The position numbers and the translations under genes were made by a program. This document shows positions 45-10,313 of a stretch of 12,596 nucleotides of DNA, in pieces (the stretch's first letter is position 1; the number at the start of each line of letters is the position of its first letter). This DNA comes from a virus (Duplodnaviria; Heunggongvirae; Uroviricota; Caudoviricetes). Where the stretch lies: the IMG/VR virus record IMGVR_UViG_2695420714_000002, one strand, 5' to 3'. The notes beneath the pieces are model-generated. The model saw only the letters and a list, made by a program, of their open reading frames with translations. It was not told where the DNA came from and did not search any database.

Positions 45-98
45 CCTGTTTACCTCTTTCTCAGGAAGTTTAGTCTCCAGGATTCCCGGGGCGGTTCA
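1..98 (-). mobile_element. Left end of an IS3-family insertion sequence (IS629/IS1203/IS3411-like), partial; continues beyond the left edge of the window
   Basis: The minus strand from position 98 reads TGAACCGCCCCGGGAATCCTGGAGACTAAACTTCCTGAGAAAGAGGTAAACAGG followed by ATGACTAAAAATACTCGTTTTTCCCCTGAAGTCCGTCAACGGGC. From memory this matches the terminal inverted repeat and orfA leader of IS629-type elements, including the TG terminus typical of the IS3 family. The IS terminal TGA supplies the stop codon of the adjacent 371-aa ORF. Confidence 0.75.
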
Positions 99-1211
99 GT
101 TATATCGCTTTCCTGCTGCCTCAATGAATTTTTGTTGCCCTTTAGTCGCAGATTCATAAAGCTGTTTATCAGAAATGCCACCCAGACCATCGCTAAATGT
201 TCTGACTAAATTTTCTCGTGCTTGTTGTTGATTCAGCCGATTCTTACCGGTTCCAAAAAAAGGAACTCTTTCGCCTAATGTCTGAGCCTGACTCTGCATA
301 AAGGTTTTATCTTTCAGCATGTCACTGGTCATTAACGGCAGATTTCTTTCCGATGCAAAGTCGACAGCAGCCTTTGCTTCAGGCGACATATCACCACGAA
401 CAGCCCTCGAAACCGCACTCGCTGTATTTTCCAGCCCCTTACCAATACCACCAATGCCAGCAGAAATTACCGTTTGTAACGGATCAATATCTTCTCCACC
501 AGCCTTGCTGGTGGCTCCCTGTAGTGCTAAATCTGTAGCTGCTGATTTTCCTATGGCACCAAGCACCGTTCCAGCCCTGCCCGCTGGTGTAAACGCCAGC
601 GCATTAGCCAGAAACGAAGTCAGGTCTTGCGGTGATAAACCCGGCTTGTTCAGGGCATAATCACCTGATGGCAGAGAAACGATAGTATTCCCCTTCTCAT
701 CCTGCCTTAATGTCGCCCCCATGCCCTGAAGAATCTTTTCCTGAGACGCGTCAGAGCCGAAAAGTTGAGACCATCCAGCCTTCAGGGCATCCATGCTTAG
801 TGAGTTCAATTCTGGGGCAGAGGCGACATTTTGCAGTCTCTCCATCTCTGGAGTCATTCGGCTTTCGCCTGTTATAGCATCGCGCATCGCAGTCCCAAGA
901 CTGGCTCCCTGTTCTGCTGAACGCTCAAGCCCCTCTCTTTGCTGAGTAGCTAACTTTGCATACCCTGACGCAAGAGAATTATCAGATGATGTATGTTGAA
1001 TATTTTGAGTTGCTGATTGGGAGCGGTCTATTTCATTCGTAGATGGTAGTGGATAGGCAGCATAAAAAGCCTGCTTAGCCTGCTCTACACTTTCTCCGGC
1101 TTGCGGGGCCACGACTTCATTGAAGTATTGCTCCTGAGCCTGCACTTTTTGTTCTGGTGCTAACGCCTGATACTGTGGAGAGGCGATAACATCTTTCCAT
1201 GCTTTAGCCAT
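96..1211 (-). CDS. Putative phage ejection (DNA-transfer) protein, P22 gp16-like by synteny, C-terminally truncated by the IS insertion (371 aa)
   Basis: Complete ORF in the track, last gene of a coupled four-gene cassette; its start overlaps the stop of the upstream gene by 1 nt. Ala/Gly/Gln/Ser-rich, low-complexity composition. The stop codon is the first 3 nt of the IS end, so the natural C-terminus is missing (P22 gp16 is about 609 aa, from memory). Assignment rests on size, order and composition only. Confidence 0.45.
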   Translation of the reverse strand: MAKAWKDVIASPQYQALAPEQKVQAQEQYFNEVVAPQAGESVEQAKQAFYAAYPLPSTNEIDRSQSATQNIQHTSSDNSLASGYAKLATQQREGLERSAEQGASLGTAMRDAITGESRMTPEMERLQNVASAPELNSLSMDALKAGWSQLFGSDASQEKILQGMGATLRQDEKGNTIVSLPSGDYALNKPGLSPQDLTSFLANALAFTPAGRAGTVLGAIGKSAATDLALQGATSKAGGEDIDPLQTVISAGIGGIGKGLENTASAVSRAVRGDMSPEAKAAVDFASERNLPLMTSDMLKDKTFMQSQAQTLGERVPFFGTGKNRLNQQQARENLVRTFSDGLGGISDKQLYESATKGQQKFIEAAGKRYN

Positions 1212-2632
1212 TAATCACCCCATAGTGAAGAAAAATTACTGCTGGCTGCTGGCTGTGATACCTGCTCAGATTGCGGCAATGTCTGCGACGAAGAAGAAGT
1301 TCCTCTGTCAACTGCTGAAATAACACGCAAAGCATCATAAGCTCGACCAGAAGCAGCTTTCAGCGAATTGAACTGGTTTTCCATCTTCCGGCGCTTGGTA
1401 TCAATGGTTTTTGTGGAGTCGCCAGGCTGAGGGAAATACATTTGATAATATTTTGACATTTCAGCAGGTACGATAGCTGCCCCTGTTTCCTGACGGAGTA
1501 TTGCCATTATTGCGTCATTAGCATTAACAACGTATTGCTGCTCTGTTGGGCTGAGCGTTAAGTTAGCCAGCGTCCCATTACCCAAAGCATTATTAATGAT
1601 CGCCACTCGCTGTGGGCTAAGCTGGCCTTTCAGTGTATCCATTGAATCAAGAGCATCCCTAACTCTGTATGCAAATCCAGCAGCTTTTTTAGCCCCTTCT
1701 GGCGACTTTTCCATGATCTTTTGGGCTGTTGGCAAAGCTATTGGACGAAACCCATCTCCAGATATTGGCTGGTTTAGTTTTCCCTGCTCTTCACTTCCGT
1801 CTGTGTAGTATTTTGTGACAGTGCCATCATCGTTTTCCCTAACACTCATTAATTTTTTGGCGTTTGTATTAATTCCAGCCGCTGCCGCAAATGCCGCTGC
1901 CCCCTCTGGATCCGCCTTTAACATTTGCGCGTACTGATTGTAATTCTGCATTGCGGCTGTTGGTGCATATGCTGACGTTAACGCATTTGCTCGGCTAATA
2001 TCCTGCCCTCTCGCCTGAAGCGCCTCTCCAGCCTGATTGCTGCGGATTGTCTCTGCCAACTTGCCACGCTCAATATCCCGACCTTCCATTCGATCTTTGA
2101 TATCGAAGTACTTCTCATGACCGAGAGAAAACAGTGCCATACTACCAGCAAGCCGCTGGAATTCCTGTGGATCATTAACATGCATTTCGGCAACAGACTC
2201 AGGAGAAATTCCCAAGCGACGCATTTCATCTTCGTTATCTGCTATGAATTTTCCAAATGCCCCAGTTCCGAGCGAAGATGCGATTTGAGCACTAGTCGCA
2301 AGATGACCAATAGAATTTCTCTGGTCGTCATCAATAAAGCCCATCCCTTTCTGAACGCTTTCAAATTCTTCTGGATACTCAGAAATAAGACTGCGCATTT
2401 TGTTTCTGTCTCCAGACTCAAAAGCCCCGGCATATGCTTTCTGAAACTCTGCTTTACGCTGTTGTTGACGTGCCTGCTGATTAATCTCAGCAACGCCTCT
2501 TAGCCCCTGTAGCGCCATTAAACCTACGTTTGGCTGCTGCTGAAACTGCACAGGCTGAGGAACGGAAGAACGAGGAGCATTATCATTTTGCGGTACCATG
2601 CTAGGCAGCCCGCCAAGTTGCCATGTCGCCAT
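1211..2632 (-). CDS. Putative phage ejection (DNA-transfer) protein, P22 gp20-like (473 aa)
   Basis: 473-aa ORF. Overlaps the upstream gene stop at 2632 and the downstream gene start at 1211 by 1 nt each. Size matches P22 gp20 (about 471 aa, from memory) and it sits between gp7-like and gp16-like genes. Gln/Ala-rich, predicted helical. No similarity search was possible. Confidence 0.5.
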   Translation of the reverse strand: MATWQLGGLPSMVPQNDNAPRSSVPQPVQFQQQPNVGLMALQGLRGVAEINQQARQQQRKAEFQKAYAGAFESGDRNKMRSLISEYPEEFESVQKGMGFIDDDQRNSIGHLATSAQIASSLGTGAFGKFIADNEDEMRRLGISPESVAEMHVNDPQEFQRLAGSMALFSLGHEKYFDIKDRMEGRDIERGKLAETIRSNQAGEALQARGQDISRANALTSAYAPTAAMQNYNQYAQMLKADPEGAAAFAAAAGINTNAKKLMSVRENDDGTVTKYYTDGSEEQGKLNQPISGDGFRPIALPTAQKIMEKSPEGAKKAAGFAYRVRDALDSMDTLKGQLSPQRVAIINNALGNGTLANLTLSPTEQQYVVNANDAIMAILRQETGAAIVPAEMSKYYQMYFPQPGDSTKTIDTKRRKMENQFNSLKAASGRAYDALRVISAVDRGTSSSSQTLPQSEQVSQPAASSNFSSLWGD

Positions 2633-3309
2633 TAGAATCCAAGCCCCCCAACAAGACCAATAAGCCCACCACCAATAGCCCCGGCGACATTACCTATACC
2701 CGGAACAACGGAACCAAGTTGCGCACCCGCTAAAGCGCCTGATGCCGCCCCACCAATACCACGCGCAAGACTGGATGGCTGCTGCGCCTGACCTGCACGA
2801 ATAGCGCCAAGCCCCTGCAAGAGTTGTCCGGTATTATTGGCGTAGTTTTGCCCTGCTGTTGCCTGCCCTGATGCCGCATTCATCCCGACATTTAGCAGGT
2901 TTCCATAATTTTGCATTTGCCCACTAAGCCAATTGTTATAAAGCATGGGCGCAATGGAAGATAACTGGTTACTGGTAGCTGTTGAGCCAAGCCCCCCGGT
3001 AGCTTCTGCTGAGACAAGGTTCTGATAACGGGCCTGATCTGCCTGTGTTTTATATAAACCAGAACCAAAGAAATCATTCGCGGCTTTATTCTGCCCTTCC
3101 AGAGTCATCAGTCCTTGTAGTTGTTGTAAAGCAGGCAATCCGACTTCTGCATACGGCTTGAGATTATTCATCACCGTATTCCACTGCTCGCGCTGCAAAT
3201 CAATTGCCTGCTGCTGGGCCTTCGCCTGAGCTTTAGAGGCACCACCATCACCGCCTTTTTCGTATACGGCACGATTGAGATGTTTATGAGCTATATGGGT
3301 AATTAACAC
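2632..3309 (-). CDS. Putative phage ejection (DNA-transfer) protein, P22 gp7-like (225 aa) with glycine-zipper hydrophobic C-terminus
   Basis: 225-aa ORF; P22 gp7 is about 229 aa (from memory). The C-terminal 40 residues are GIGGAASGALAGAQLGSVVPGIGNVAGAIGGGLIGLVGGLGF, a GxxxG-rich hydrophobic segment. Overlaps the upstream gene by 7 nt. Confidence 0.5.
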   Translation of the reverse strand: MLITHIAHKHLNRAVYEKGGDGGASKAQAKAQQQAIDLQREQWNTVMNNLKPYAEVGLPALQQLQGLMTLEGQNKAANDFFGSGLYKTQADQARYQNLVSAEATGGLGSTATSNQLSSIAPMLYNNWLSGQMQNYGNLLNVGMNAASGQATAGQNYANNTGQLLQGLGAIRAGQAQQPSSLARGIGGAASGALAGAQLGSVVPGIGNVAGAIGGGLIGLVGGLGF

Positions 3310-3764
3310 TCGCTGAATTCCTTATATTGTTGCCGAGTTAACTGATAAAGCGTTACGCCGACGGGTTTACCACATCTGATATAAGCATCATCAAGGTGAC
3401 CAACACGGGTAGCGCCAAGCAAACTGATAATTGCCCGTCCGTATTTCGTTGTGTCAGGAACCATGGTAATGCTGTTAAGGAATGGTGAGTTTTCGAGAAG
3501 CCATTTGCAGAATAATCGATGCCCTTGCAGTGCATATTCACCACGGAATCCGGGGTCGTACACCGCATGGCATTCAACAATGCTATGCCAGAAGTTACGC
3601 ACTTCATGAACGCCAGCCAGCACCAATCCTTCGTAGATACCGAGATATACCGCATCAGGCTTGATGTAGTACGTGTGCCCCGGCTCAACAATATTTTCGG
3701 TATTGCCAGGCTCGTTGAGAAAGGCCTGTAATCGCACAGGGTTATCAATAAATTTTAGTTCCAT
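3303..3764 (-). CDS. Hypothetical 153-aa protein, P22 gene-14-like position upstream of the ejection-protein genes (alternative: small acetyltransferase-like protein)
   Basis: 153-aa ORF, first large gene of the cassette; translation MELKFIDNPVRLQAF...YIRCGKPVGVTLYQLTRQQYKEFSEC. Weak SD (GGATGG) upstream of the ATG at 3764. The family assignment is an inference from synteny. Confidence 0.45.
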   Translation of the reverse strand: MELKFIDNPVRLQAFLNEPGNTENIVEPGHTYYIKPDAVYLGIYEGLVLAGVHEVRNFWHSIVECHAVYDPGFRGEYALQGHRLFCKWLLENSPFLNSITMVPDTTKYGRAIISLLGATRVGHLDDAYIRCGKPVGVTLYQLTRQQYKEFSEC

Positions 3765-3780
3765 GCGATGCCATCCATTT

Positions 3781-3942
3781 TCACATACAGCCTGCCAGCG
3801 CCTTATCTATTAACCCTCGTGCAATTTCATGCAGAGTTGGCGCTACTCCAATTCCTGATTTTTTACGCTGCTCTTCCTGAATTTTCTTTATCGCTTCCAT
3901 TTGCTTCTCACTTATCAATACCGGCTTTACTGAAATAGCCAT
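3781..3942 (-). CDS. Small 53-aa protein with ribbon-helix-helix-like residue pattern (not in the ORF track, below its size cutoff)
   Basis: ATG at 3942..3940 with a strong SD (AAGGGGG) about 5 nt upstream; stop TGA at 3783..3781, 16 nt before the 153-aa gene start. Translation MAISVKPVLISEKQMEAIKKIQEEQRKKSGIGVAPTLHEIARGLIDKALAGCM shows a short beta-strand-like segment followed by two helix-like segments, as in Arc/MetJ/CopG proteins. Confidence 0.45.
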   Translation of the reverse strand: MAISVKPVLISEKQMEAIKKIQEEQRKKSGIGVAPTLHEIARGLIDKALAGCM

Positions 3943-4340: not shown

Positions 4341-4389
4341 CACTCTCTGATGCCAGCCAGGTGTTGTGCGCATCAATTCAGTCACATTG

Positions 4390-4501
4390 TGTTGGTTCAA
4401 AATACCGTGCTGTTGGTTCAGTGTTGGTTCAATAAAAAGAATAAAATTCTTATAAAACAATACTCTTTACAAATTGAACCAACTGAACCAACTGAACCAA
4501 C
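4390..4501. repeat. Iteron cluster: three direct and three tandem inverted copies of GTTGGTTCA flanking an AT-rich spacer; putative replication origin or cis-replication region
   Basis: TGTTGGTTCA at 4390-4399, 4411-4420 and 4422-4431. TGAACCAAC, the reverse complement, in perfect tandem at 4475-4483, 4484-4492 and 4493-4501. The roughly 43-bp spacer between them (4432-4474) is strongly AT-rich. The cluster lies directly downstream of the primase gene. Confidence 0.6.
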
Positions 4502-4526: not shown

Positions 4527-7286
4527 TCATTCTTCAGATGAGTTGTAATCTCCTGGCTGGTAATTGAGTACATAAACGTTTATTTGTCGTCCCTGAATAC
4601 GTGGTGATTTTCTTTGGTATCCACGACCGCTGTTTGGTGGGGTTAGCATCCCGGCTTTTTTCAACACTTCAGCAAACTGTTTTGCGTTGAAACCACATGC
4701 GATCTCCTTTTCAAATGTGGCCGGGAATGTGTAGAAAATCATTGGGCTTTCGTCATGTTCTCCACGCTGACGGTATCCGGCTAAATCTTTGATGGGCAAA
4801 TCTGCCGGGCTGTATGGAAATGGTGCAAAACGGCTAAGCCCATAGGCATTAAGAAATGCCTCCGTTTGTTCAATAATCTGCTGATGTTCTTTGTTACCTG
4901 TGCCGAACTCGCGCAACCATGCGTTATAGCTGTGCTGTATCGCATCACGGCATGTCTGAGCATCCCAGCCTGTTACAACCTCGCCTAACAGCAATGCGGC
5001 CTCCAGAATGGCAAATCGCGCGGCTACACGGTGAACCTGCTCACCATAATCGGATGGGATCAGACTTCTCCATCTGCTTTCGCAGTCACGAACAGTTTTA
5101 ATTGCCTGTTGCTGGTGGTCTGCCAGCCATTTAATCCACTCACGCCCGGCTGCGCCGTGGTGATGCTGGTAAGCGTCTTTCAGTGCGTCTGCGTGCTGTT
5201 TTCCGTTCTGGTAATCGTGAAAGCGTACTGCTTTACTCAACGGAATATTCAGCAGTCGCACCAGTTGCCCGGCTTTGGTTTTTCGCCCGGAAGTAGCGAT
5301 AAATGTTTCTAAATCCATTTCTCCGGTGCTGATTGCCACTGTACGCCAGCGTTTTAGATCCCGGTTTCCACCATCTTTAGCGCCTTGCAGTTTCCCTACA
5401 CCGTTAAATAACGCATAGGCAGACTGTGAAACACTGACAGGATCAGCGCCCTGACCAACTTCATCAAGCGGCATTAGTCCGTCATTGTGGGCGGCGGCTT
5501 CATTTGCCAGCCCCAGCGCGGTTCCGTACCACGTCAGCCGCAGTAAATCAGGGTTGCCGTATAAGCTGCTCGCCACGTTTGCCGTGGTGGTCTTACCTGC
5601 GCTCGACTGCTCATAGAAATGAATGCCGAACCCGTCAGCGCCCACCAGCCCAATCAATGGCGCTGCCAGTGCTGCGCCGATCCCGGTCATCATTGAATAG
5701 TTACCAAAGGCCAGACGCGCCACGTTATCACGCCAGCTTTTCGCGCTCCCTGAGACGGTATATCCGGCTGCGGCTGAGCTTCTCCCGCTGAACAGCACAG
5801 GATTTTCAGGTGTTCCGATGATTTCCCCATCAGGCATGATGTACGCTCCGCATTGCCAGCCAGTGGCATGAGCAACACGCCACAATTCACGAGAGCCACT
5901 GCGTTGTAGCCAGTCTGCCAGTATTGCTCTGAGGCTGCTTTTGGTCGTGACATTTACCCCACCAGCTTTAAGTGTGCGCCATCCTTCACGTTCACCAATA
6001 TCAGCCAGTGGAATGGCAGCGGTTGTCGGCGTTTCAGAACCAAACGACAGCCAGCGAAGAATGAGATACTGGTCTTTATCGTCTCTGCCAGTACCGATAA
6101 CGCTTAACGGAGAACATAACCAGCTTTCGTTATTGATGATTTCTCCACTCTGGCTGTCAGCTCTCGGAGATACCCAATAAATGCCATCCTCGCGGCTTTC
6201 TATTCTTGGTTTCAGTGGGTCGGTATCCATAACCTTAAAATCGCTTCCCTCAATGGTTTGTGGCTCCTGTTTCACGCCATTACCCTGTGGTTGGTACATT
6301 GACTTATTGAACGCTTCTGTGGCGCATTTAATGCCGTGTTTTTGGTGGTAATCATTCCAGTCTGCTTTGTGATCTGTCGGGGGTAATGCCACCCATCCAG
6401 AAACAGATAAAGCTGCTTTTTCTGCTGCTATTCTCCCCGTGTTTTGTCTTCCTTCGCTGTGGTCGTTATCCGCAGCAATGATGATTTGTGCTGAAGGAAA
6501 TTTATCCCGCAGTACCTGGGCGACATATAACAGGTTCCCGGCATCAATCGCCGCCACTGTCAGCGCCTCTGGACGCATTAAATGGGCAGATAATGCCGTT
6601 GCCAGCCCTTCTGCGATTAAGATGCTCTGTGTTGTTTCTGGTGCGTTTATGGCGTGATATGCCCCCCGCTTTGCTGAACCTATCAGGAGTCTTTTTTCAC
6701 CATGTGAGGTAATAGTCTGTGCTGCTGTTACTGCGCCGGATTTATCCACCAGCGCCAGCAACAGAGATCCATCGGGCAACACGGGGAATGTAAAATCACC
6801 TACCCCTTTCGCAACCAGATAATCAGATTTGCCGTTTACAGCCTTTCTGCGCATGTCATCAAACTGACGGGAAAACGTATCCCGTCTTTGTTGTTCGTCC
6901 TTCTCTGCCCTTTTCAGGCGCTCCTGTTCGCGTCGCTGGCGCTCGGTTTCCAGTTGTTCCCGTTTCTGGCTGGTGGCTTCTGGTGTTTCCGTTGTCCGGT
7001 AATCAATACCCAGAACATCAGCGGCAAGAAGCGCCGCCTCTGTTGTGTCGCAGTTATTTACGCGTTTAATTAAATCCAGCCCATCACCAGCGCCGCACTG
7101 ATTACAGATGAAGCTACCGCGCCCGTTGTCATCGAACCGGAATCGATCTTTGCCCCCACATGCAGGGCAGGGAGCATGACGGCGCGGAGAGTCAGGGACA
7201 TTTATGTTCAGGCAGCCCAGCACATGAGGCCAGTTGTTTTCAGACGCACTGATAACCTGACGGATAAGATCAATGTTTCGCATCAC
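4527..7286 (-). CDS. Phage/plasmid-type DNA primase with zinc-binding N-terminus, TOPRIM domain and C-terminal P-loop NTPase (P4 alpha-like architecture), 919 aa
   Basis: Zinc-finger-like CPACGGKDRFRFDD...CNQCG near the N-terminus; TOPRIM-like acidic motif IIIAADNDHSEG; Walker A-like FYEQSSAGKTT. The first codon is GTG at 7286 with an ATG at 7283; a G-rich SD lies upstream. The start overlaps the upstream 123-aa gene by 17 nt. Confidence 0.85.
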   Translation of the reverse strand: MMRNIDLIRQVISASENNWPHVLGCLNINVPDSPRRHAPCPACGGKDRFRFDDNGRGSFICNQCGAGDGLDLIKRVNNCDTTEAALLAADVLGIDYRTTETPEATSQKREQLETERQRREQERLKRAEKDEQQRRDTFSRQFDDMRRKAVNGKSDYLVAKGVGDFTFPVLPDGSLLLALVDKSGAVTAAQTITSHGEKRLLIGSAKRGAYHAINAPETTQSILIAEGLATALSAHLMRPEALTVAAIDAGNLLYVAQVLRDKFPSAQIIIAADNDHSEGRQNTGRIAAEKAALSVSGWVALPPTDHKADWNDYHQKHGIKCATEAFNKSMYQPQGNGVKQEPQTIEGSDFKVMDTDPLKPRIESREDGIYWVSPRADSQSGEIINNESWLCSPLSVIGTGRDDKDQYLILRWLSFGSETPTTAAIPLADIGEREGWRTLKAGGVNVTTKSSLRAILADWLQRSGSRELWRVAHATGWQCGAYIMPDGEIIGTPENPVLFSGRSSAAAGYTVSGSAKSWRDNVARLAFGNYSMMTGIGAALAAPLIGLVGADGFGIHFYEQSSAGKTTTANVASSLYGNPDLLRLTWYGTALGLANEAAAHNDGLMPLDEVGQGADPVSVSQSAYALFNGVGKLQGAKDGGNRDLKRWRTVAISTGEMDLETFIATSGRKTKAGQLVRLLNIPLSKAVRFHDYQNGKQHADALKDAYQHHHGAAGREWIKWLADHQQQAIKTVRDCESRWRSLIPSDYGEQVHRVAARFAILEAALLLGEVVTGWDAQTCRDAIQHSYNAWLREFGTGNKEHQQIIEQTEAFLNAYGLSRFAPFPYSPADLPIKDLAGYRQRGEHDESPMIFYTFPATFEKEIACGFNAKQFAEVLKKAGMLTPPNSGRGYQRKSPRIQGRQINVYVLNYQPGDYNSSEE

Positions 7287-7641
7287 CGTACCCCACGTGG
7301 TCTATAGCGTTTGCGATATGGCTAACCAGCATCTGCCACTTGGTTATTCCGTAATCAGTCAGCATGCCATCATTGTTTAGCCACATATCAAATTCAGCGG
7401 TTGTCGCAAGTTTCCACTTATCGCCGTGGACAGTCCTCATTGCTGGGTACATGAATGCGCAAATCAGATCACAAACATCTGACGGCTTCAGAGATGTAGT
7501 AATGGTGCGTCCCTCTGGCGTCTGAATTGCCATTTTCTCTTCACTAGTAGAATGAAGGTTATGAATCCACACAGCGCCAGCAATCTTTGCCACCTGCTCT
7601 CCGATTGCGGAGCTAAGCGCCATTTCTGCATTTTCACGCAT
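7270..7641 (-). CDS. Hypothetical protein (123 aa), translationally coupled to the primase
   Basis: ATG at 7641 with SD GGGAGG 5-6 nt upstream; 8-nt overlap with the upstream gene; the 3' end overlaps the primase start. Confidence 0.6.
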   Translation of the reverse strand: MRENAEMALSSAIGEQVAKIAGAVWIHNLHSTSEEKMAIQTPEGRTITTSLKPSDVCDLICAFMYPAMRTVHGDKWKLATTAEFDMWLNNDGMLTDYGITKWQMLVSHIANAIDHVGYGDAKH

Positions 7642-7975
7642 GAGAACCTCCCGCTACAGTTGCGCCCATGTCATTAACCATGCTTTGCCATATCTCACGC
7701 CCGACGTCAGTCAATCCGTCCTTAGTGACGCAACGATCAAGAAGCTCTATCACCACGGTTTCCCACTGCGGGTAGAACACTTTCATGGCTGCCAGTGTGT
7801 AGCTATCGATCAGGCTGCGAACGCCTTTTACTCCATTGACGATTTCCACACGGACGGCCTCGCCGTCCGCATCAACCATGAAATAGTCCCCGCCGCTGGT
7901 GGAGGTAATGTGGTTATACAGTGCCGACGCATACTTATTTGCCAGCGCATTCAGTCGGAAATTTTTAGTAATCAT
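7634..7975 (-). CDS. Hypothetical protein (113 aa)
   Basis: ATG at 7975 with GGAG/GAGGA upstream; 10-nt gap after the upstream gene stop; same-strand operon context. Confidence 0.55.
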   Translation of the reverse strand: MITKNFRLNALANKYASALYNHITSTSGGDYFMVDADGEAVRVEIVNGVKGVRSLIDSYTLAAMKVFYPQWETVVIELLDRCVTKDGLTDVGREIWQSMVNDMGATVAGGSHA

Positions 7976-7985
7976 GGCTCCATCC

Positions 7986-8588
7986 TCAGTGCGTCACTGG
8001 TTCCGCTGGCATGCCGTTTTCATTCAGTTCAGCTATAAAGCTGTTGTGAAGTTCAGCAAGCGTTTCACGACCAAATGGAGTCAGTGCTCCTTGTTCCACA
8101 TCCATCATGGCTCTGTAGAAAATGATGGCGCGTTCTGTGCCAGACTCGATGCCAAAACGTTCTATCATCGCGCCCTCAATGTTGTTTGCCATAGCGAGGC
8201 GCTCTGCTACTGGATACAGCGGCATGGCGACGATGCCGTTGGAATAAACAGCCACTTCGGAAGGATTGCCAGTATCATCAATGATGCTGACAGTGCCGTT
8301 TTCCTCTCTCATTTCCAGCATGAATACTGTTGCGATCAGCCATCTCCACATAATGACGTTATGCTGTGATGTGTAATCGAAATATCCTTGGTTGCCGCCA
8401 TCGGCAATAGCGAGATGTATTGACATACCTTCATCTGGTTTATCGTCATAATCCCCGGCATCCAGACGATTTACGGCATCAATATATGAAACGGCCTCAA
8501 CGCGTTCTGTCATGCCATCGTTGCTGCGGTGTATGATGTTTACGCCGTCAGGCGTTGCTTCTGCATGGAAGGTTAAGAAATTATTCAT
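7986..8588 (-). CDS. Hypothetical protein (about 200 aa; start re-called at the internal ATG, the track ORF extends to 8693)
   Basis: The track ORF 7986..8693 overlaps the upstream gene by about 110 nt. The internal Met (MNNFLTFHAEATPDG...) at about 8588 gives the ATGAATAA-type 8-nt start/stop overlap seen at other junctions in this operon, with GAGG upstream. Confidence 0.55.
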   Translation of the reverse strand: MNNFLTFHAEATPDGVNIIHRSNDGMTERVEAVSYIDAVNRLDAGDYDDKPDEGMSIHLAIADGGNQGYFDYTSQHNVIMWRWLIATVFMLEMREENGTVSIIDDTGNPSEVAVYSNGIVAMPLYPVAERLAMANNIEGAMIERFGIESGTERAIIFYRAMMDVEQGALTPFGRETLAELHNSFIAELNENGMPAEPVTH

Positions 8589-8802
8589 GTTTCGCCTCGC
8601 CTGAATGATTCTGTAACTCATATTTGCCCAACAATTCGTCTGCTTCCTGAATAGCTTCTGGTACGCCATTGAGCAGTGACATAACCGCGCCAATCATTAA
8701 CTTGTCTCTGTTGCTGGGGCTGGCCCCTTCAAGCCAGAACCCTAAAACAGTCTGAACCTGTTCGATGCGACATTGCGCTTCAATGAGCTGGATGTTGGTC
8801 AT
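8581..8802 (-). CDS. Hypothetical protein (73 aa)
   Basis: ATG at 8802 with SD GGAGAG about 6 nt upstream; ATGA-type 4-nt overlap with the upstream gene. Confidence 0.55.
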   Translation of the reverse strand: MTNIQLIEAQCRIEQVQTVLGFWLEGASPSNRDKLMIGAVMSLLNGVPEAIQEADELLGKYELQNHSGEAKHE

Positions 8803-9062
8803 TTCGCACTCTCCGCATCGATTAAACTGATATCTATCAGAGAGGTAACTTTTTGTAGCCAGCTAGTGATTACTGTCGCCTGTTCCCCTCCCACCGATGG
8901 AAGAATCTCATTCATCACATGAACCAGACCTGTGCGCGCTCTGGTAAGCCGTTCAGTCGTGCGATCTGCAAGAGTGAATGTGTCTGGATATGGCTCTTCA
9001 CGGCTCAGCAATGATTCAATTTCCAGCTCACACGGATGACGATAAATTAAGTTGATATTCAT
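8799..9062 (-). CDS. Hypothetical protein (87 aa)
   Basis: ATG at 9062 with a G-rich SD (GGGGG) about 7 nt upstream; ATGA overlap with the upstream gene stop. Confidence 0.55.
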   Translation of the reverse strand: MNINLIYRHPCELEIESLLSREEPYPDTFTLADRTTERLTRARTGLVHVMNEILPSVGGEQATVITSWLQKVTSLIDISLIDAESAK

Positions 9063-9253
9063 TTTTCACCCCCAAGAATTACCAGCTCTGCACGAGCATC
9101 GTTAACCAAAGATGAGCACGCTTTAATCGCATCCACGACATCAGCAGCGTCCATTTCTTCAGCCGAAAGACTGACAGCAACCAGGACAGCCGCTGCTTGC
9201 TCGATTAATTGAAGTGCGGACGTAAGTCGAGGGGCATTAATTGAGTTATTCAT
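9059..9253 (-). CDS. Hypothetical protein (about 64 aa; start re-called at the internal ATG, the track ORF extends to 9310)
   Basis: Internal Met ([10 protein letters not shown]...) at 9253 with AGGGG about 7 nt upstream and an 8-nt ATGAATAA-type overlap with the stop of the upstream 72-aa gene. The longer track start would overlap that gene by about 65 nt. Confidence 0.5.
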   Translation of the reverse strand: MNNSINAPRLTSALQLIEQAAAVLVAVSLSAEEMDAADVVDAIKACSSLVNDARAELVILGGEK

Positions 9254-9464
9254 TGGTTGCCCCTGTTTTTCCAGGCATTTCGCCACCTTCCAGCAGGAAA
9301 TGAACGTCACGAACGGCGAGATCCAATATCGCGAGTAACGCCTTCAGTTTTTCGTCTCGTGAGGGAGAGTTGCTCACCAGAATGTCATTAATCACTTCTG
9401 TCAGTGTGATGATCTGGCTTGTGCGTTCGAGGGGATCCATATGCACATCGTAGGTTTTAATCAT
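9246..9464 (-). CDS. Hypothetical protein (72 aa; [13 protein letters not shown]...), annotated here as an independent gene rather than the C-terminus of the 355-aa track ORF
   Basis: ATG at 9464 preceded by SD GGAGG with a 6-nt spacer. The start overlaps the stop of the 64-aa gene as ATGATTAA. The translated sequence is helical and protein-like, unlike the 355-aa frame immediately upstream of it. Confidence 0.6.
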   Translation of the reverse strand: MIKTYDVHMDPLERTSQIITLTEVINDILVSNSPSRDEKLKALLAILDLAVRDVHFLLEGGEMPGKTGATNE

Positions 9465-10313
9465 GTGCCACCTCCATGCGGATACGACCAGCAAAAAAGC
9501 AGACGTGATCGCGCACCAGAGAACGGCGAGCATCGCGTTCAGACTCGGCAGCAATATGATGAATTTTGGCGGTAATTGTCGGGCAATCGCGGCGAACTGC
9601 GGCGATAATCCAGATAAATTGCGGTTTTTGGGTAGGGGTAGTAGCCAGCATGTGGCAGCCTCCTTGTACTGGGAATTCTTCCCACCACCGGAGCTGCGAA
9701 ACTCGCTGGTGGTGGACTGAACAGAGTTCGCAGTACCGGCGTACAAGGAAACCGGCCAGCCTTTCGGCTGCCCTGTCCAGCCCACCATAATTTTGCAAGC
9801 GACGCGGATTATAACCACATCACTGAAAAAAGTGTGAGTCTGGCTAACGGCACAAAAAAAGACGCTCGGCGCGTCATGTGTCGCCTCGTACATTTCCGGG
9901 CTGCGAAACCCGGCACCCGTTTTATGAGGTGCCTTATAACCATAAACCGTGTTGCCGCATAACGACAAGCTCTTTTTTATGGACTCCGAAAACTCACTAT
10001 TGGAAGCACCAGATGCACAATACATCGCGCTCATTTCGTTAACGTCGCGCGTGTGGACGAAGGTTTTTGTGGAGCCACTACGCGAGCAGAGAAAGCCATC
10101 TACGACCAGAAATTCTCTGGCGCAGCCGCTGACCCTCTCAACGCTAACACCATCGACCGTAATTTCTGACATAGTTAAGGCATCCGCTCCTACCACCAGC
10201 AAATGATAAACCTTGCTTGCATCTGCTGTATTAATGCCTGATTTTGCTGTCATATTGCTGGATTTTTGCGACATACCAGCCAGTGAAAATATCTTCTTCT
10301 GGGCGGTTAGCAT
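9246..10313 (-). CDS. ORF with a strong start at 10313 (355 aa in the track); probably composite: an N-terminal hypothetical protein of about 150 aa that has lost its stop, or reads through, fused in frame across the leader to the 72-aa gene
   Basis: ATG at 10313 with SD GGAGG about 7 nt upstream and an ATGCTAA-type overlap with the upstream gene stop, so a real gene starts here. The frame stays open through a hairpin-T7 element, a TATAAT, a structured leader and the 64-aa gene in another frame. Both alternative frames hit stop codons shortly after the T7 tract. Confidence 0.3.
9457..9651 (-). CDS. Hypothetical protein (64 aa; [22 protein letters not shown]...), first gene of the small-gene/primase operon
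   Basis: Internal ATG of the 113-aa track ORF 9457..9798, preceded by a perfect SD (AAGGAGG) with about a 7-nt spacer. Its stop TAA overlaps the next gene's ATG. It lies in a different frame from the 355-aa track ORF, whose translation here is compositionally odd (Trp/Pro-rich). By my base count the ATG is at 9650..9648, one nt off the frame implied by the track. Confidence 0.5.
   Translation of the reverse strand: MLATTPTQKPQFIWIIAAVRRDCPTITAKIHHIAAESERDARRSLVRDHVCFFAGRIRMEVAHD
9653..9747 (-). promoter_or_regulatory. Structured 5' leader: nested hairpins with pseudoknot potential that occlude the SD of the 64-aa gene
   Basis: Outer 8-bp stem CCTTGTAC (9661-9668) with GTACAAGG (9740-9747); the mRNA arm overlaps the AAGGAGG SD. 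Inner 10-bp GC-rich stem 9681-9690 with 9705-9714, with a 14-nt loop. Loop sequence CTGCGAA (9694-9700) is complementary to TTCGCAG (9726-9732). Confidence 0.4.
9853..9874 (-). terminator. Terminator-like GC hairpin followed by a T7 run on the minus strand (candidate attenuator or intrinsic terminator)
   Basis: Plus-strand A7 at 9853-9859 followed by GACGC-tcggc-GCGTC at 9860-9874; on the minus-strand RNA this is a hairpin followed by UUUUUUU. The stem is only 5 bp, so this is weak. A TATAAT on the minus strand (about 9812..9807) follows it. Confidence 0.3.

Follow-up and report, generated by a model that had tools for sequence, protein, structure and literature searches.

Eight small genes behind a C4-type antisense RNA: the probable immunity-controlled early operon of a P4/PICI-type phage satellite

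The eight small open reading frames (ORFs; g1 to g8) on the minus strand of the window, as we call the whole stretch of 12,596 nucleotides analysed, are in our assessment real genes which, together with the primase gene that follows them, probably make up, in an integrated phage satellite of the P4/PICI type, an early (replication) operon under immunity control. As part of the same assessment, the first gene, g1, is of the known Icd/Kil cell-division-inhibitor type and, by analogy with P4 and P1, would be switched off by a C4-type antisense RNA encoded just upstream. The features on which this reading is based are as follows, in the order of transcription.

9246-10313, minus strand: 355-aa eta-like frame, RefSeq "ash family protein"
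9855-9932, minus strand: isrK-type RNA (Rfam RF01394, 69 bits against a gathering score of 50)
9705-9792, minus strand: C4 / P4-CI-type antisense immunity RNA (Rfam RF01695, 81 bits against a gathering score of 45)
9694-9700, minus strand: a2 target, exact complement of C4 nt 60-66
9659-9669, minus strand: b2 target (9669-9661, GUACAAGGA), overlapping the g1 Shine-Dalgarno (SD) sequence AAGGAGG (9665-9659)
9457-9651, minus strand: g1, Icd/Kil-family, 64 aa (NCBIfam NF033153, E 3.7e-20)
9246-9464, minus strand: g2, 72 aa, no known family, start overlapping the g1 stop (ATGATTAA)
9059-9253, minus strand: g3, 64 aa, no known family
8799-9062, minus strand: g4, 87 aa, variable cassette
8581-8802, minus strand: g5, 73 aa (phrog_20558, E 2.9e-9, function unknown)
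7986-8588, minus strand: g6, 200 aa (phrog_1515, E 5.5e-47, function unknown)
7634-7975, minus strand: g7, 113 aa, narrow primase-proximal family (phrog_37628, E 8e-49, function unknown)
7270-7641, minus strand: g8, 123 aa, overlapping the primase start
4527-7283, minus strand: primase/helicase with TOPRIM and DUF927, final gene of the coupled chain

The coordinates and lengths of g1 to g8 agree with a preliminary description of this DNA, and all eight ORFs have ATG starts and no internal stops. That description had regarded them as tightly coupled, real genes that belong to a satellite's early operon, with the antirepressor module on one side and the primase on the other, and both statements were borne out. 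The junctions from g1 to g6 are overlaps of 8, 8, 4, 4 and 8 nt, g6 and g7 are separated by a gap of 10 nt, g7 and g8 overlap by 8 nt and g8 overlaps the primase gene by 14 nt (ATG at 7283) or 17 nt (GTG at 7286). The chain reaches from alpA to the primase, with each gene close behind the previous one, mostly through start/stop overlaps of 1-14 nt, and with two short gaps, 12 nt before ant and the 10 nt before g7; at the g6-g7 junction coupling is by proximity only. An SD-like motif precedes all eight starts, the strongest being those of g1, g2 (GGAGGTGG), g7 (GAGGATGGAG) and g8 (GGGAGG), with weaker ones at g3 and g4. A promoter scan revealed no convincing promoter and gave fewer matches than shuffled sequence. 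The N-terminal 360 aa of the primase share 34% identity with P4 alpha, and an iteron region lies at 4389-4501.

The block was covered to at least 80% in 255 of 5426 complete E. coli genomes. Among the E. coli copies, whose loci share ancestry so that the counts are not independent events, substitutions at codon positions 1/2/3 fell mostly at third positions in g2 (4/7/26), g3 (6/1/17), g5 (0/0/5) and g6 (37/29/106), and the pooled pN/pS of these third-position-biased genes was 0 to 0.28 (0.13 for g2, 0.14 for g3). No such bias was seen in g4 (21/18/23, pN/pS 0.63), and substitutions in g7 and g8 were too few to judge. In other Enterobacterales genera g4, g5, g6 and g7 are kept as ORFs with 30-65% protein identity in 12-33 loci (g5 in 19, g7 in 21 and g6, the most widespread member of the block, in 33), whereas g2, g3 and g8 were seldom seen beyond E. 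coli (4, 2 and 2 loci). Third-position bias and cross-genus ORFs thus speak for conservation as coding sequence. A recurrent layout was found in about 50 loci, namely alpA, Bro-type genes, a long icd frame, small genes, g6, g7 and primase, with junctions of -4 and -8 nt being the commonest. Gene content is mosaic in the interval from icd to g6, where no fewer than a dozen families of small proteins are exchanged from locus to locus.

Two RNA genes, isrK and C4, which the preliminary description had missed, lie directly upstream of g1 on the same strand, and they explain the tight coupling of the genes. A covariance model built for this analysis scored the C4 RNA at 91.6 bits and also detected the P4 CI RNA, and the isrK-C4 pair is present in P4 itself and in relatives too. 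Matches to isrK have been equated with P4 seqA (PMC10111431), and the isrK element represents the upstream copy (a1/b1, P4 seqA-like) of the C4 target: its segment 9907-9901 (UUCGCAG) is exactly complementary to C4 nt 60-66 and its segment 9891-9884 (GUACGAGG), as read from the sequence, pairs with the C4 loop with one G-U. The 3' end of isrK carries a terminator-like site, a hairpin with a T-run (9875-9861). Furthermore, each of the two single-stranded segments of C4 is exactly complementary to a site in the interval from C4 to g1. The a2 site is a 7-nt exact match found at the same offset in 29 of 29 loci, and b2 (9669-9661) is an exact 9-nt complement of C4 loop nt 44-52. Pairing of loop and target co-varies across the family, P4 included, and does so in 29 of 29 related loci with many different loop sequences; each cognate target is an exact complement of 8-11 nt abutting GGAGGCTGCC-N-ATG, while non-cognate pairs of loop and target match over a mean of 3.8 nt. 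In addition, E. coli harbours two isrK-C4 alleles (71.6% identity) between near-identical flanks, as expected for an immunity determinant.

Both RNA genes are crossed by the 355-aa frame, whose C-terminal end is g2, a relation likewise overlooked before. With a GGAGG of its own, the frame begins inside the DUF4222 gene, 7 nt from the end of that gene and thus over its stop, spans isrK, C4 and, in a different frame, g1, and ends at the g2 stop; RefSeq annotates it in place of g1 and g2. Pfam Phage_ASH matches its residues 124-232, which correspond to 9944-9618, i.e. the RNA region, and substitutions in its N-terminal part are spread over the three codon positions without bias (51/42/55). In 34 of 34 loci, C4 nevertheless lies within a stretch of 564-1314 nt that is free of stop codons. 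The frame looks like the P4 eta-type read-through frame, whose mechanism has been described with kil, CI, seqA and eta-alpA coupling (PMC10111431). In contrast to P4 eta/kil, it is out of frame with g1, which it bypasses, and terminates with g2, so that g1 is not necessarily produced during read-through.

The preliminary description had found no recognisable motif in any of the eight products. This holds for g2 to g8, for which no characterised homologue was found in Pfam, NCBIfam, PADLOC, PDB or BFVD, but not for g1, the first gene translated after C4, which is Icd-like and shares 44% identity (E 4e-11) with a 65-aa ORF of P4 at 8365-8168. None of the homology and structure searches assigned the proteins to ordinary characterised housekeeping functions of phages. 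We take the 65-aa P4 ORF to be kil; it coincides with the coordinates of the P4 Rho-dependent terminator timm (X51522 8365-8209; PMC3177188). The g1 gene is the most C-rich and G-poor segment of the operon with the highest C/G ratio (1.30), and membership of the family points to division inhibition or killing as its likely role.

The closest known arrangement is the left operon of P4 (vis/alpA, eta/kil with embedded seqA and CI RNA, epsilon, orf151, cnr, alpha). Both share the order of an AlpA-type gene, a long frame containing isrK/seqA and C4/CI, an Icd/Kil gene of 64-65 aa, small coupled genes and the primase, as well as the geometry of loop-to-SD complementarity and 8-nt gene junctions. 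In the window, unlike in P4, Bro/Ant and DUF4222 genes separate alpA from the long frame, this frame is in phase with the next gene g2 and not with kil, seven unrelated small genes replace epsilon, orf151 and cnr, and the C-terminal part of the primase is of the DUF927 type. The P4 genes psu, sid and delta are not annotated in the element L001, which is 99.2% identical to that of the window, and none is evident among the window ORFs; the cargo consists of P22-type ejection-protein genes and the packaging signal is P22 pac-like, not P2 cos. In the immI region of P1/P7 (c4 antisense RNA, icd, ant), the C4 RNA is processed from the transcript it controls and has a target on either side, of which the downstream one extends over the ribosome-binding site of icd, and later genes are translationally coupled to icd. 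The likeness to the window lies in the Rfam families C4 and c4-a1b1, the mechanism being that of P1. In P1 it is the antirepressor gene ant that is coupled to icd, while in the window the antirepressor is encoded upstream and its place in the coupled chain is taken by seven small ORFs and the primase. Gram-negative PICIs are organised in four zones: integration (int, AlpA), Bro and immunity RNAs (C4 and isrK models), replication (primase, origin) and late (late genes captured from the helper) (PMC10111431). The window element matches this organisation, except that its late zone holds P22-like DNA-ejection proteins where PICIs have capsid or packaging genes. The available text of that paper does not single out the small-gene block between immunity RNAs and primase (PMC10111431).

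With P4 and P1 as models, the C4 RNA would block translation of g1 in the repressed state, and Rho, whose involvement is known from P4/P1 only, would then terminate transcription on the untranslated, C-rich g1 RNA, so that g2 to g8 and the primase would stay silent. Upon induction, the transcript from the upstream AlpA operon would be translated without interruption: ribosomes would move from DUF4222 into the 355-aa frame and across isrK, C4 and g1 to the g2 stop. Such read-through translation would prevent termination, and ribosomes would be handed gene by gene down to the primase.

What the genes behind g1 are selected for can be read in several ways. They might be effectors of host takeover, anti-defence or helper manipulation, for instance inactivators of a helper repressor like P4 epsilon or inhibitors of host immunity, with the shuffling of cassettes reflecting an arms race; as a general account of the block we find this doubtful. 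It would fit the mosaic interval between icd and g6, the relaxed or diversifying change of g4 within E. coli, the affinities of g5, which by hhalign resembles other families of the array (F28 82%, F26 38%, F10 24%) and is apparently a member of the loose small-protein group populating it in relatives, the presence of the P4 helper-derepression gene epsilon at the corresponding position, and the occurrence of g6 homologues in accessory early-left regions of temperate phages. However, no similarity to P4 epsilon, ORF151 or any characterised family was detected, and the element already has a separate AntA/AntB antirepressor, encoded upstream of the block. Rather unlikely in our view is a block from icd to primase that serves chiefly in phage-triggered cell death or superinfection exclusion, where a protein of the infecting phage activates the operon and Icd with the small proteins arrests the infected cell; such a system would not conflict with the regulatory model, from which it differs in what the genes are selected for. 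It draws on the ECOR61 prophage, in which suppressors of phage-triggered cell death map to three genes, one of them Icd-like and the others the two small ones behind it, insertions in these three abolish the phenotype, and six linked genes including the primase, in the same order as in the window, are all required to reconstitute the effect (10.1101/2023.04.06.535777). The likeness is one of architecture and gene order; the genes following icd differ slightly in size (61 and 63 aa there, 72 and 64 aa here), and six genes compare with nine, counting the primase. Moreover, none of the eight proteins matched a PADLOC family, the reconstituted effect was described as muted (10.1101/2023.04.06.535777), and the ECOR61 data would equally fit plain induction of a satellite with a toxic Icd/Kil.

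It is also somewhat unlikely that g6, g7 and g8 are together accessory factors of the replication module, functional analogues of Cnr that have the primase/helicase or the origin as binding partner and govern copy number or timing, with g2-g5 as unrelated passengers. P4 cnr precedes alpha and controls copy number (PMC8628076); similarly, nothing, or only g7 or g8, parts g6 from the primase in the gene chains compared, g8 overlaps the primase start, a g7 homologue adjoins a different type of primase, that of the P4 family, in two loci (L006, L007), and a single natural g6-g7 fusion protein exists (P0383). The g6 family aligns with Cnr (DUF5375, PF17345) over 56 columns with the pattern IEG..YG..G...A...LS..G (hhalign 59%, P 9e-5; weak), the C-terminal helices of g6 corresponding to Cnr residues 42-98, and weak DUF5375 matches to the same stretch occur in two of eight g6 homologues. 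Pfam, on the other hand, gave no DUF5375 signal in g6 or 48 close homologues, and g6 is twice as long as Cnr, with an extra beta-rich N-terminal part in its confident AlphaFold2 model (pLDDT 89.2, pTM 0.84), a fold that found no structural match in PDB or BFVD. Homologues of g6 also reside in early-left operons or regions of phiP27, Stx phages and Klebsiella phages, where no primase is adjacent. By profile comparison g7 and g8 resemble neither Cnr nor g6, and both are dispensable, since L005 and L089, elements that are otherwise near-identical and carry the same primase, lack the two together. We consider it very unlikely that the eight include ORFs that are not genes in their own right, g2 being only the read-through tail and g4 or g8 decaying or recently arisen functionless ORFs. 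The long frame is the sole RefSeq annotation over g2, and in all four loci with g2 homologues by tblastn (L010, L023, L039, L052), as in the window, the frame crossing C4 ends about 450 nt past C4 and not at the icd stop; g4 lacks third-position bias within E. coli, and g3 and g8 are rare. Against this, g2 has its own ATG over the g1 stop, its own SD motif and strong third-position bias, g4 is kept as an 87-aa ORF with 47-60% identity in 12 loci of other genera, and g8 is kept at 54% identity in Leclercia.

Within the satellite operon that we favour, g6-g8 form a primase-proximal set. The g7 family is narrow, with only 50 cluster representatives among 1.84 billion proteins, and g8, found only in E. 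coli elements and the Leclercia locus L039, is probably a diverged tandem paralogue of g7 (hhalign probability 65%, P 6e-5). By its weak resemblance to Cnr, g6 may modulate replication in the manner of that protein. The genes g3-g5 are exchangeable accessory cassettes, g3 and g5 being weakly linked by profile (hhalign probability 19%), and a role of these three in helper or host interaction is a guess. While the regulatory reading of the operon is well supported, the roles in host takeover, anti-defence or helper manipulation that the preliminary description had envisaged are plausible candidate functions of the remaining genes.

The preliminary description had reported a block of eight small, tightly coupled genes, here called g1 to g8 in order of transcription, and both the reading frames and their coupling hold on re-examination. 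All eight lie on the minus strand, start with ATG and run without internal stops.

9651-9457, minus strand, g1, 64 aa
9464-9246, minus strand, g2, 72 aa
9253-9059, minus strand, g3, 64 aa
9062-8799, minus strand, g4, 87 aa
8802-8581, minus strand, g5, 73 aa
8588-7986, minus strand, g6, 200 aa
7975-7634, minus strand, g7, 113 aa
7641-7270, minus strand, g8, 123 aa

Successive genes from g1 to g6 overlap by 8, 8, 4, 4 and 8 nt, g6 and g7 are separated by a 10-nt gap, g7 and g8 overlap by 8 nt, and g8 overlaps the primase start by 14 nt (ATG at 7283) or 17 nt (GTG at 7286). A purine-rich motif precedes each of the eight starts; those of g1, g2, g7 and g8 are strong, those of g3 and g4 less so. 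From alpA (11962) to the primase every gene lies close to its neighbour, mostly with overlaps of 1-14 nt; ant is preceded by a gap of 12 nt and g7 by one of 10 nt. With a 3.2-kb query spanning the block, 255 of the 5426 complete E. coli genomes searched reached a coverage of at least 80%. In a comparison of seven E. coli copies, an excess of third-position substitutions was observed (positions 1/2/3) for g2 (4/7/26), g3 (6/1/17), g5 (0/0/5) and g6 (37/29/106), with pooled pN/pS values of 0 to 0.28 like those of the flanking antirepressor and primase genes; these counts are not independent events, because the copies share ancestry. The exception was g4 (21/18/23, pN/pS 0.63), and g7 and g8 varied too little among these copies for codon-position bias to be judged. 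Conservation across relatives was likewise found: tblastn on 77 loci from other Enterobacterales encoding a related primase detected g6 in 33 loci, g1 in 27, g7 in 21, g5 in 19, g4 in 12, g2 in 4, and g3 and g8 in 2 each, with protein identities of 30-65%. Third-position bias and cross-genus conservation therefore confirm the eight open reading frames, and the eight-gene finding is real.

The regulation of this block is accounted for by two RNA genes that the preliminary description had overlooked. They lie directly upstream on the same strand and are recognised by Rfam models.

9932-9855, minus strand, isrK RNA (Rfam, 69 bits), the upstream target copy (a1/b1, seqA type)
9792-9705, minus strand, C4 antisense RNA of the P4 CI type (Rfam RF01695, 81.1 bits against a gathering score of 45), directly upstream of g1

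The same pair was detected in satellite phage P4, whose C4 match is the CI immunity RNA, and, according to PMC10111431, the C4 and isrK models pick up P4 CI and the CI target seqA in PICIs of Gram-negative bacteria. In the window, loop nucleotides 44-52 of C4 (UCCUUGUAC) form an exact 9-nt complement of 9669-9661, overlapping the AAGGAGG of g1 (ATG at 9651), and the single-stranded nucleotides 60-66 are exactly complementary both to 9700-9694 (7 nt) and to isrK positions 9907-9901 (a1). The b1 site at 9891-9884, as read from the sequence, pairs with the C4 loop with one G-U. A covariance model built from seven C4 sequences revealed 36 copies in related loci, and 29 loci with many different loops, P4 included, were compared, pairing being scored by counts of exact complements. 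In 29/29 loci the loop had an exact 8-11 nt complement about 35 nt downstream, abutting the GGAGGCTGCC-N-ATG of an icd-like ORF, compared with an average complement of 3.8 nt for non-cognate pairs of loci with different loops. In these loci a second C4 segment had its exact 7-nt complement about 4 nt downstream of C4, with a further upstream copy of that complement at a variable distance, often about 115 nt. This covariation of loop and target is the strongest single result of the analysis and, on comparative grounds, shows g1 to be the predicted gene under translational control of the C4 RNA. Moreover, the isrK-C4 stretch (9652-9932) occurs in E. coli as two alleles whose pairwise alignment has only 71.6% identity and 16 gap positions, whereas the flanks on either side reach 95-100% identity (in comparison with loci L002, L087, L088 and L089); loop and target change together between the alleles (TCGAATGGA in the second). 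Divergent alleles between near-identical flanks are the pattern expected of an immunity-specificity determinant, and the stretch looks like an immunity-type swap.

The identity of g1 agrees with such control. The earlier statement that none of the products carries a recognisable motif is wrong for g1, which matches the NCBIfam Icd-like host cell division inhibitor family (NF033153, 71.7 bits against a cut-off of 25, E 3.7e-20) and, judged by its family, would act in division inhibition or killing. A 65-aa ORF of P4 (8365-8168) is 44% identical to g1 (E 4e-11). We take this ORF to be kil, in keeping with what is known of P4 and with the account of Kil given in PMC10111431. It coincides with the P4 Rho-dependent terminator timm, located at X51522 8365-8209 (PMC3177188). 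In addition, g1 is the most C-rich and G-poor segment of the operon (C/G 1.30, the other genes having 0.73-1.02), a composition that a Rho entry site should show, and we infer that Rho-dependent termination may occur in untranslated g1. A promoter scan of the region returned fewer sites than shuffled sequence, and therefore no promoter was assigned.

In most copies, RefSeq annotates a single long frame, the 355-aa "ash family protein", in place of g1 and g2.

10313-9246, minus strand, 355-aa frame with its own GGAGG, overlapping the stop of the DUF4222 gene by 7 nt and ending at the g2 stop codon

The frame crosses isrK and C4 and passes g1 in another reading frame. Its Pfam Phage_ASH match (PF10554; residues 124-232, window 9944-9618) is the translation of the isrK/C4 region, and its N-terminal third has no codon-position bias (51/42/55). 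PF10554 serves as the P4 epsilon marker in PMC8628076, whereas P4 epsilon itself matches PF25738. In 34/34 loci one frame was stop-free for 564-1314 nt across C4, the other two being usually interrupted, and this frame shared its stop either with icd, in the manner of P4 eta, or with the gene after icd, which is the case in the window. In P4 a constitutive promoter lies inside eta and its transcripts end early through CI/seqA interactions, Kil is made only upon occasional read-through, and full-length Eta is produced from an upstream late promoter with translation coupled to the alpA homologue (PMC10111431). The long frame of the window, with its stop-free span across C4, fits a mechanism of the P4 eta type. 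The RefSeq call masks the Icd-like g1, g2 and both RNAs in most genomes.

Compared with the C4/CI-controlled icd/kil operons of P1 immI and of P4 immunity, the window thus contains the C4/CI RNA upstream on the same strand, its complementarity to the ribosome-binding site of the first ORF, the second upstream target copy (a1/b1, seqA) and a first ORF of the Icd/Kil family (g1). An eta-type frame coupled to an upstream gene across the RNA region is also present, although it ends with g2 and not with icd. The regulation of the block is now explained by a well-known mechanism.

The genes downstream of g1 are organised as an exchangeable array. In about 50 loci, co-oriented gene chains upstream of the primase follow the layout alpA, a 143-aa gene, a Bro-type gene, often a DUF4222 gene, the long icd frame, variable small genes, g6, g7 and primase, with junctions of -4 and -8 nt predominating. 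From icd to g6 the gene content is mosaic, with g4, g5 and no fewer than 10 further small families coming and going. In these chains g6 either adjoins the primase or is separated from it by g7 or g8 only. Profile comparison by hhalign gave 82% for g5 with F28, 83% for F26 with F28, 38% for g5 with F26, 24% for g5 with F10 and 19% for g3 with g5 (F10, F26 and F28 being other small-protein families of the arrays), which weakly suggests that several of these families are related to one another.

The most widespread member of the block, g6, also has homologues in early-left operons of temperate phages (phiP27, Stx phages, Klebsiella phages, phi467). A first structural model, built from 48 sequences at 62-90% identity, reached a pLDDT of 54 and was unusable. 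AlphaFold2 on a diverse alignment yielded three short beta-hairpin elements and six helices with a pLDDT of 89.2 and a pTM of 0.84, the pLDDT having risen to 89 because a second search seeded with distant homologues added diversity. The predicted fold is confident and without a known relative; a profile search of PDB sequences with g6 returned only a designed repeat protein (E 0.0016). P4 copy number is controlled by Cnr (PMC8628076), the DUF5375 protein (PF17345). No Pfam match to DUF5375 was found for g6 or its 48 close homologues, and two of eight distant homologues gave faint matches (E 0.03-0.07). Family profiles of g6 and Cnr aligned over 56 columns with a shared IEG..YG..G...A...LS..G (hhalign probability 59%, P 9e-5); a scan of viral contigs for Cnr relatives retrieved almost only identical copies, useless for a profile. 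We regard a possible relation of g6 to Cnr as a lead and not as a result. In Enterobacter adelaidei (L011:8489-9654) two g6-like genes of 187 aa (27% identity to g6) and 200 aa (60%) stand in tandem, so the g6 family duplicates within the array.

The genes g7 and g8 are probably diverged tandem paralogues, as the g7 family profile aligns with g8 (hhalign 65%, P 6e-5); neither is related to g6 or Cnr in the same kind of comparison. Both are jointly absent from otherwise near-identical E. coli elements, and in two other elements the gene next to a P4-family primase is a homologue of g7. Among 1.84 billion proteins the small g7 family has just 50 cluster representatives. It includes P0383 (336 aa), in which a g6-like and a g7-like protein are naturally fused; in a second composite, P0404 (190 aa), the zinc-ribbon N-terminus of a primase is joined to a g7-like domain. 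Either could reflect functional linkage or a frameshift or assembly error. When PDB sequences were searched with g8, poly-ubiquitin chains were returned at E 6.6e-6, with about 6 bits per unit, and mono-ubiquitin at E 0.07-0.6. The poly-ubiquitin value arises because the scores of the repeats are summed; with this repeat artefact taken away, the database match falls short of significance. Residues 37-101 of g8 (window 7339-7533) contain the ubiquitin-like motifs GRTITTSLKPSD and LNNDGMLTDYGITK, both kept in a Leclercia homologue, and a Smith-Waterman comparison with ubiquitin, a target picked after the fact, gave z 6.8. The ubiquitin-like beta-grasp resemblance of g8 may serve as a weak lead.

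Searches of Pfam, NCBIfam, PHROGs and PADLOC with all eight proteins returned a named function for g1 only, while g5, g6 and g7 fell into PHROGs of unknown function, and no search run assigned a role to any of g2-g8. Two product names in circulation look like propagated annotation errors: "nicotinic acetylcholine receptor subunit beta" for the g4 product (8799-9062) in some RefSeq records and "2-polyprenylphenol hydrolase/hydroxylase" for g6 homologues of Klebsiella phages. P4 epsilon and ORF151 have no similarity to any protein of the window.

A role of the array in defence was weighed against this background. The closest experimental evidence comes from the prophage-encoded cell-death system of strain ECOR61, in which small genes at the equivalent position are genetically required for phage-triggered cell death and all six linked genes, the primase included, are needed to rebuild the effect (10.1101/2023.04.06.535777); its architecture matches that of the present block. 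None of the eight proteins matched the anti-phage defence models of PADLOC-DB v2 below E 0.009. On a joint reading, the g2-g5 array and its relatives, together with g6-g8, would form the specificity part of an Icd-dependent, phage-triggered growth arrest of the ECOR61 kind; the satellite would serve for defence as well, exchange of cassettes changing its triggers, and g6 would found a new fold linking trigger sensing to the primase. We consider this combination improbable.

The composition of the whole element can be read from a 99.2% identical copy in E. coli 214-4.

Gene order of the E. coli 214-4 element
Positions 1-6: integrase; hypothetical gene; AlpA-type regulator; 143-aa gene; AntA/AntB antirepressor; DUF4222 gene
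Positions 7-9: long frame; six hypothetical genes (g3-g8); TOPRIM/DUF927 primase
Positions 10-14: 53-aa gene; DUF2824 protein; 225-aa protein; "Phage DNA ejection protein"; lytic transglycosylase

In the window the last group corresponds to a late zone downstream of the primase.

96-3942, minus strand, late zone: 53-aa gene, DUF2824 gene, 225-aa gene, 473-aa "phage DNA ejection protein" gene, and a 371-aa ORF at the left end of the window

In the complete E. coli element L001 a 906-aa lytic transglycosylase follows the ejection-protein gene. The late-zone proteins presumably resemble gp14, gp7, gp20 and gp16 of P22, and a satellite carrying the ejection proteins of its helper is unusual. By gene content, all four zones of Gram-negative PICIs are present, namely inward-facing int and AlpA, a Bro zone that holds the immunity RNAs, a zone for the primase, and a late zone of helper late genes (PMC10111431). 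The definition of P4-like satellites requires psu, delta and sid at one location, along with alpA, Ash/epsilon, alpha and an integrase (PMC8628076). AlpA, a Phage_ASH match, an alpha-related primase and an integrase are present here, but no psu, sid or delta is among the annotated genes of the complete, 99.2% identical L001, and the element thus falls outside the P4-like satellites, strictly defined.

The features of the window that were least expected, a pac-like segment and iterons, lie just outside the small-gene block. On the plus strand, a stretch of 107 nt (10059-10165) matches the small-terminase gene (gene 3) of P22-like phages at 85-92% identity. The stretch runs antisense to the 355-aa frame, inside its unconstrained N-terminal part. 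The similarity ends abruptly, and its start coincides exactly with the left edge of the 22-bp pac site annotated in P22 (window 10059-10080, 16/22 identical). It is probably a captured packaging signal for P22-like helpers. Pac-like 22-mers in other family members numbered five with at most 4 mismatches, versus about 0.1 expected by chance in our own estimate. Relatives of the 22-mer were seen at L068:9257, L006:8163 (minus strand), L011:6980, L039:21747-22290 and L017:7950 and 8010, often upstream of isrK; the Leclercia locus L039 carries ejection-protein genes and several pac-like copies downstream of them. Taken together, the pac-like segment and the ejection-protein genes suggest packaging of the element by P22-like helpers. 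Immediately downstream of the primase gene (4389-4501), three direct GTTGGTTCA and three inverted copies (TGAACCAAC) flank an A+T-rich spacer, an arrangement that looks like an iteron-type replication origin.

For routine annotation, the "ash family protein" is to be corrected, as it conceals two small genes, the first of the Icd/Kil type, and two RNA genes. The small proteins g2-g8 are legitimate but ordinary targets of further study; as seven uncharacterised proteins, including g6 and the exchangeable small proteins, they are well defined for work on satellite replication control, helper manipulation and the killing of infected cells. About 5% of complete E. coli genomes carry the element family in near-identical form, and many genera of Enterobacterales carry it as a mosaic. 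RNA immunity of the P4/P1 type, with an antisense block of icd/kil translation and polarity via coupled genes, probably governs this whole family of integrated elements.
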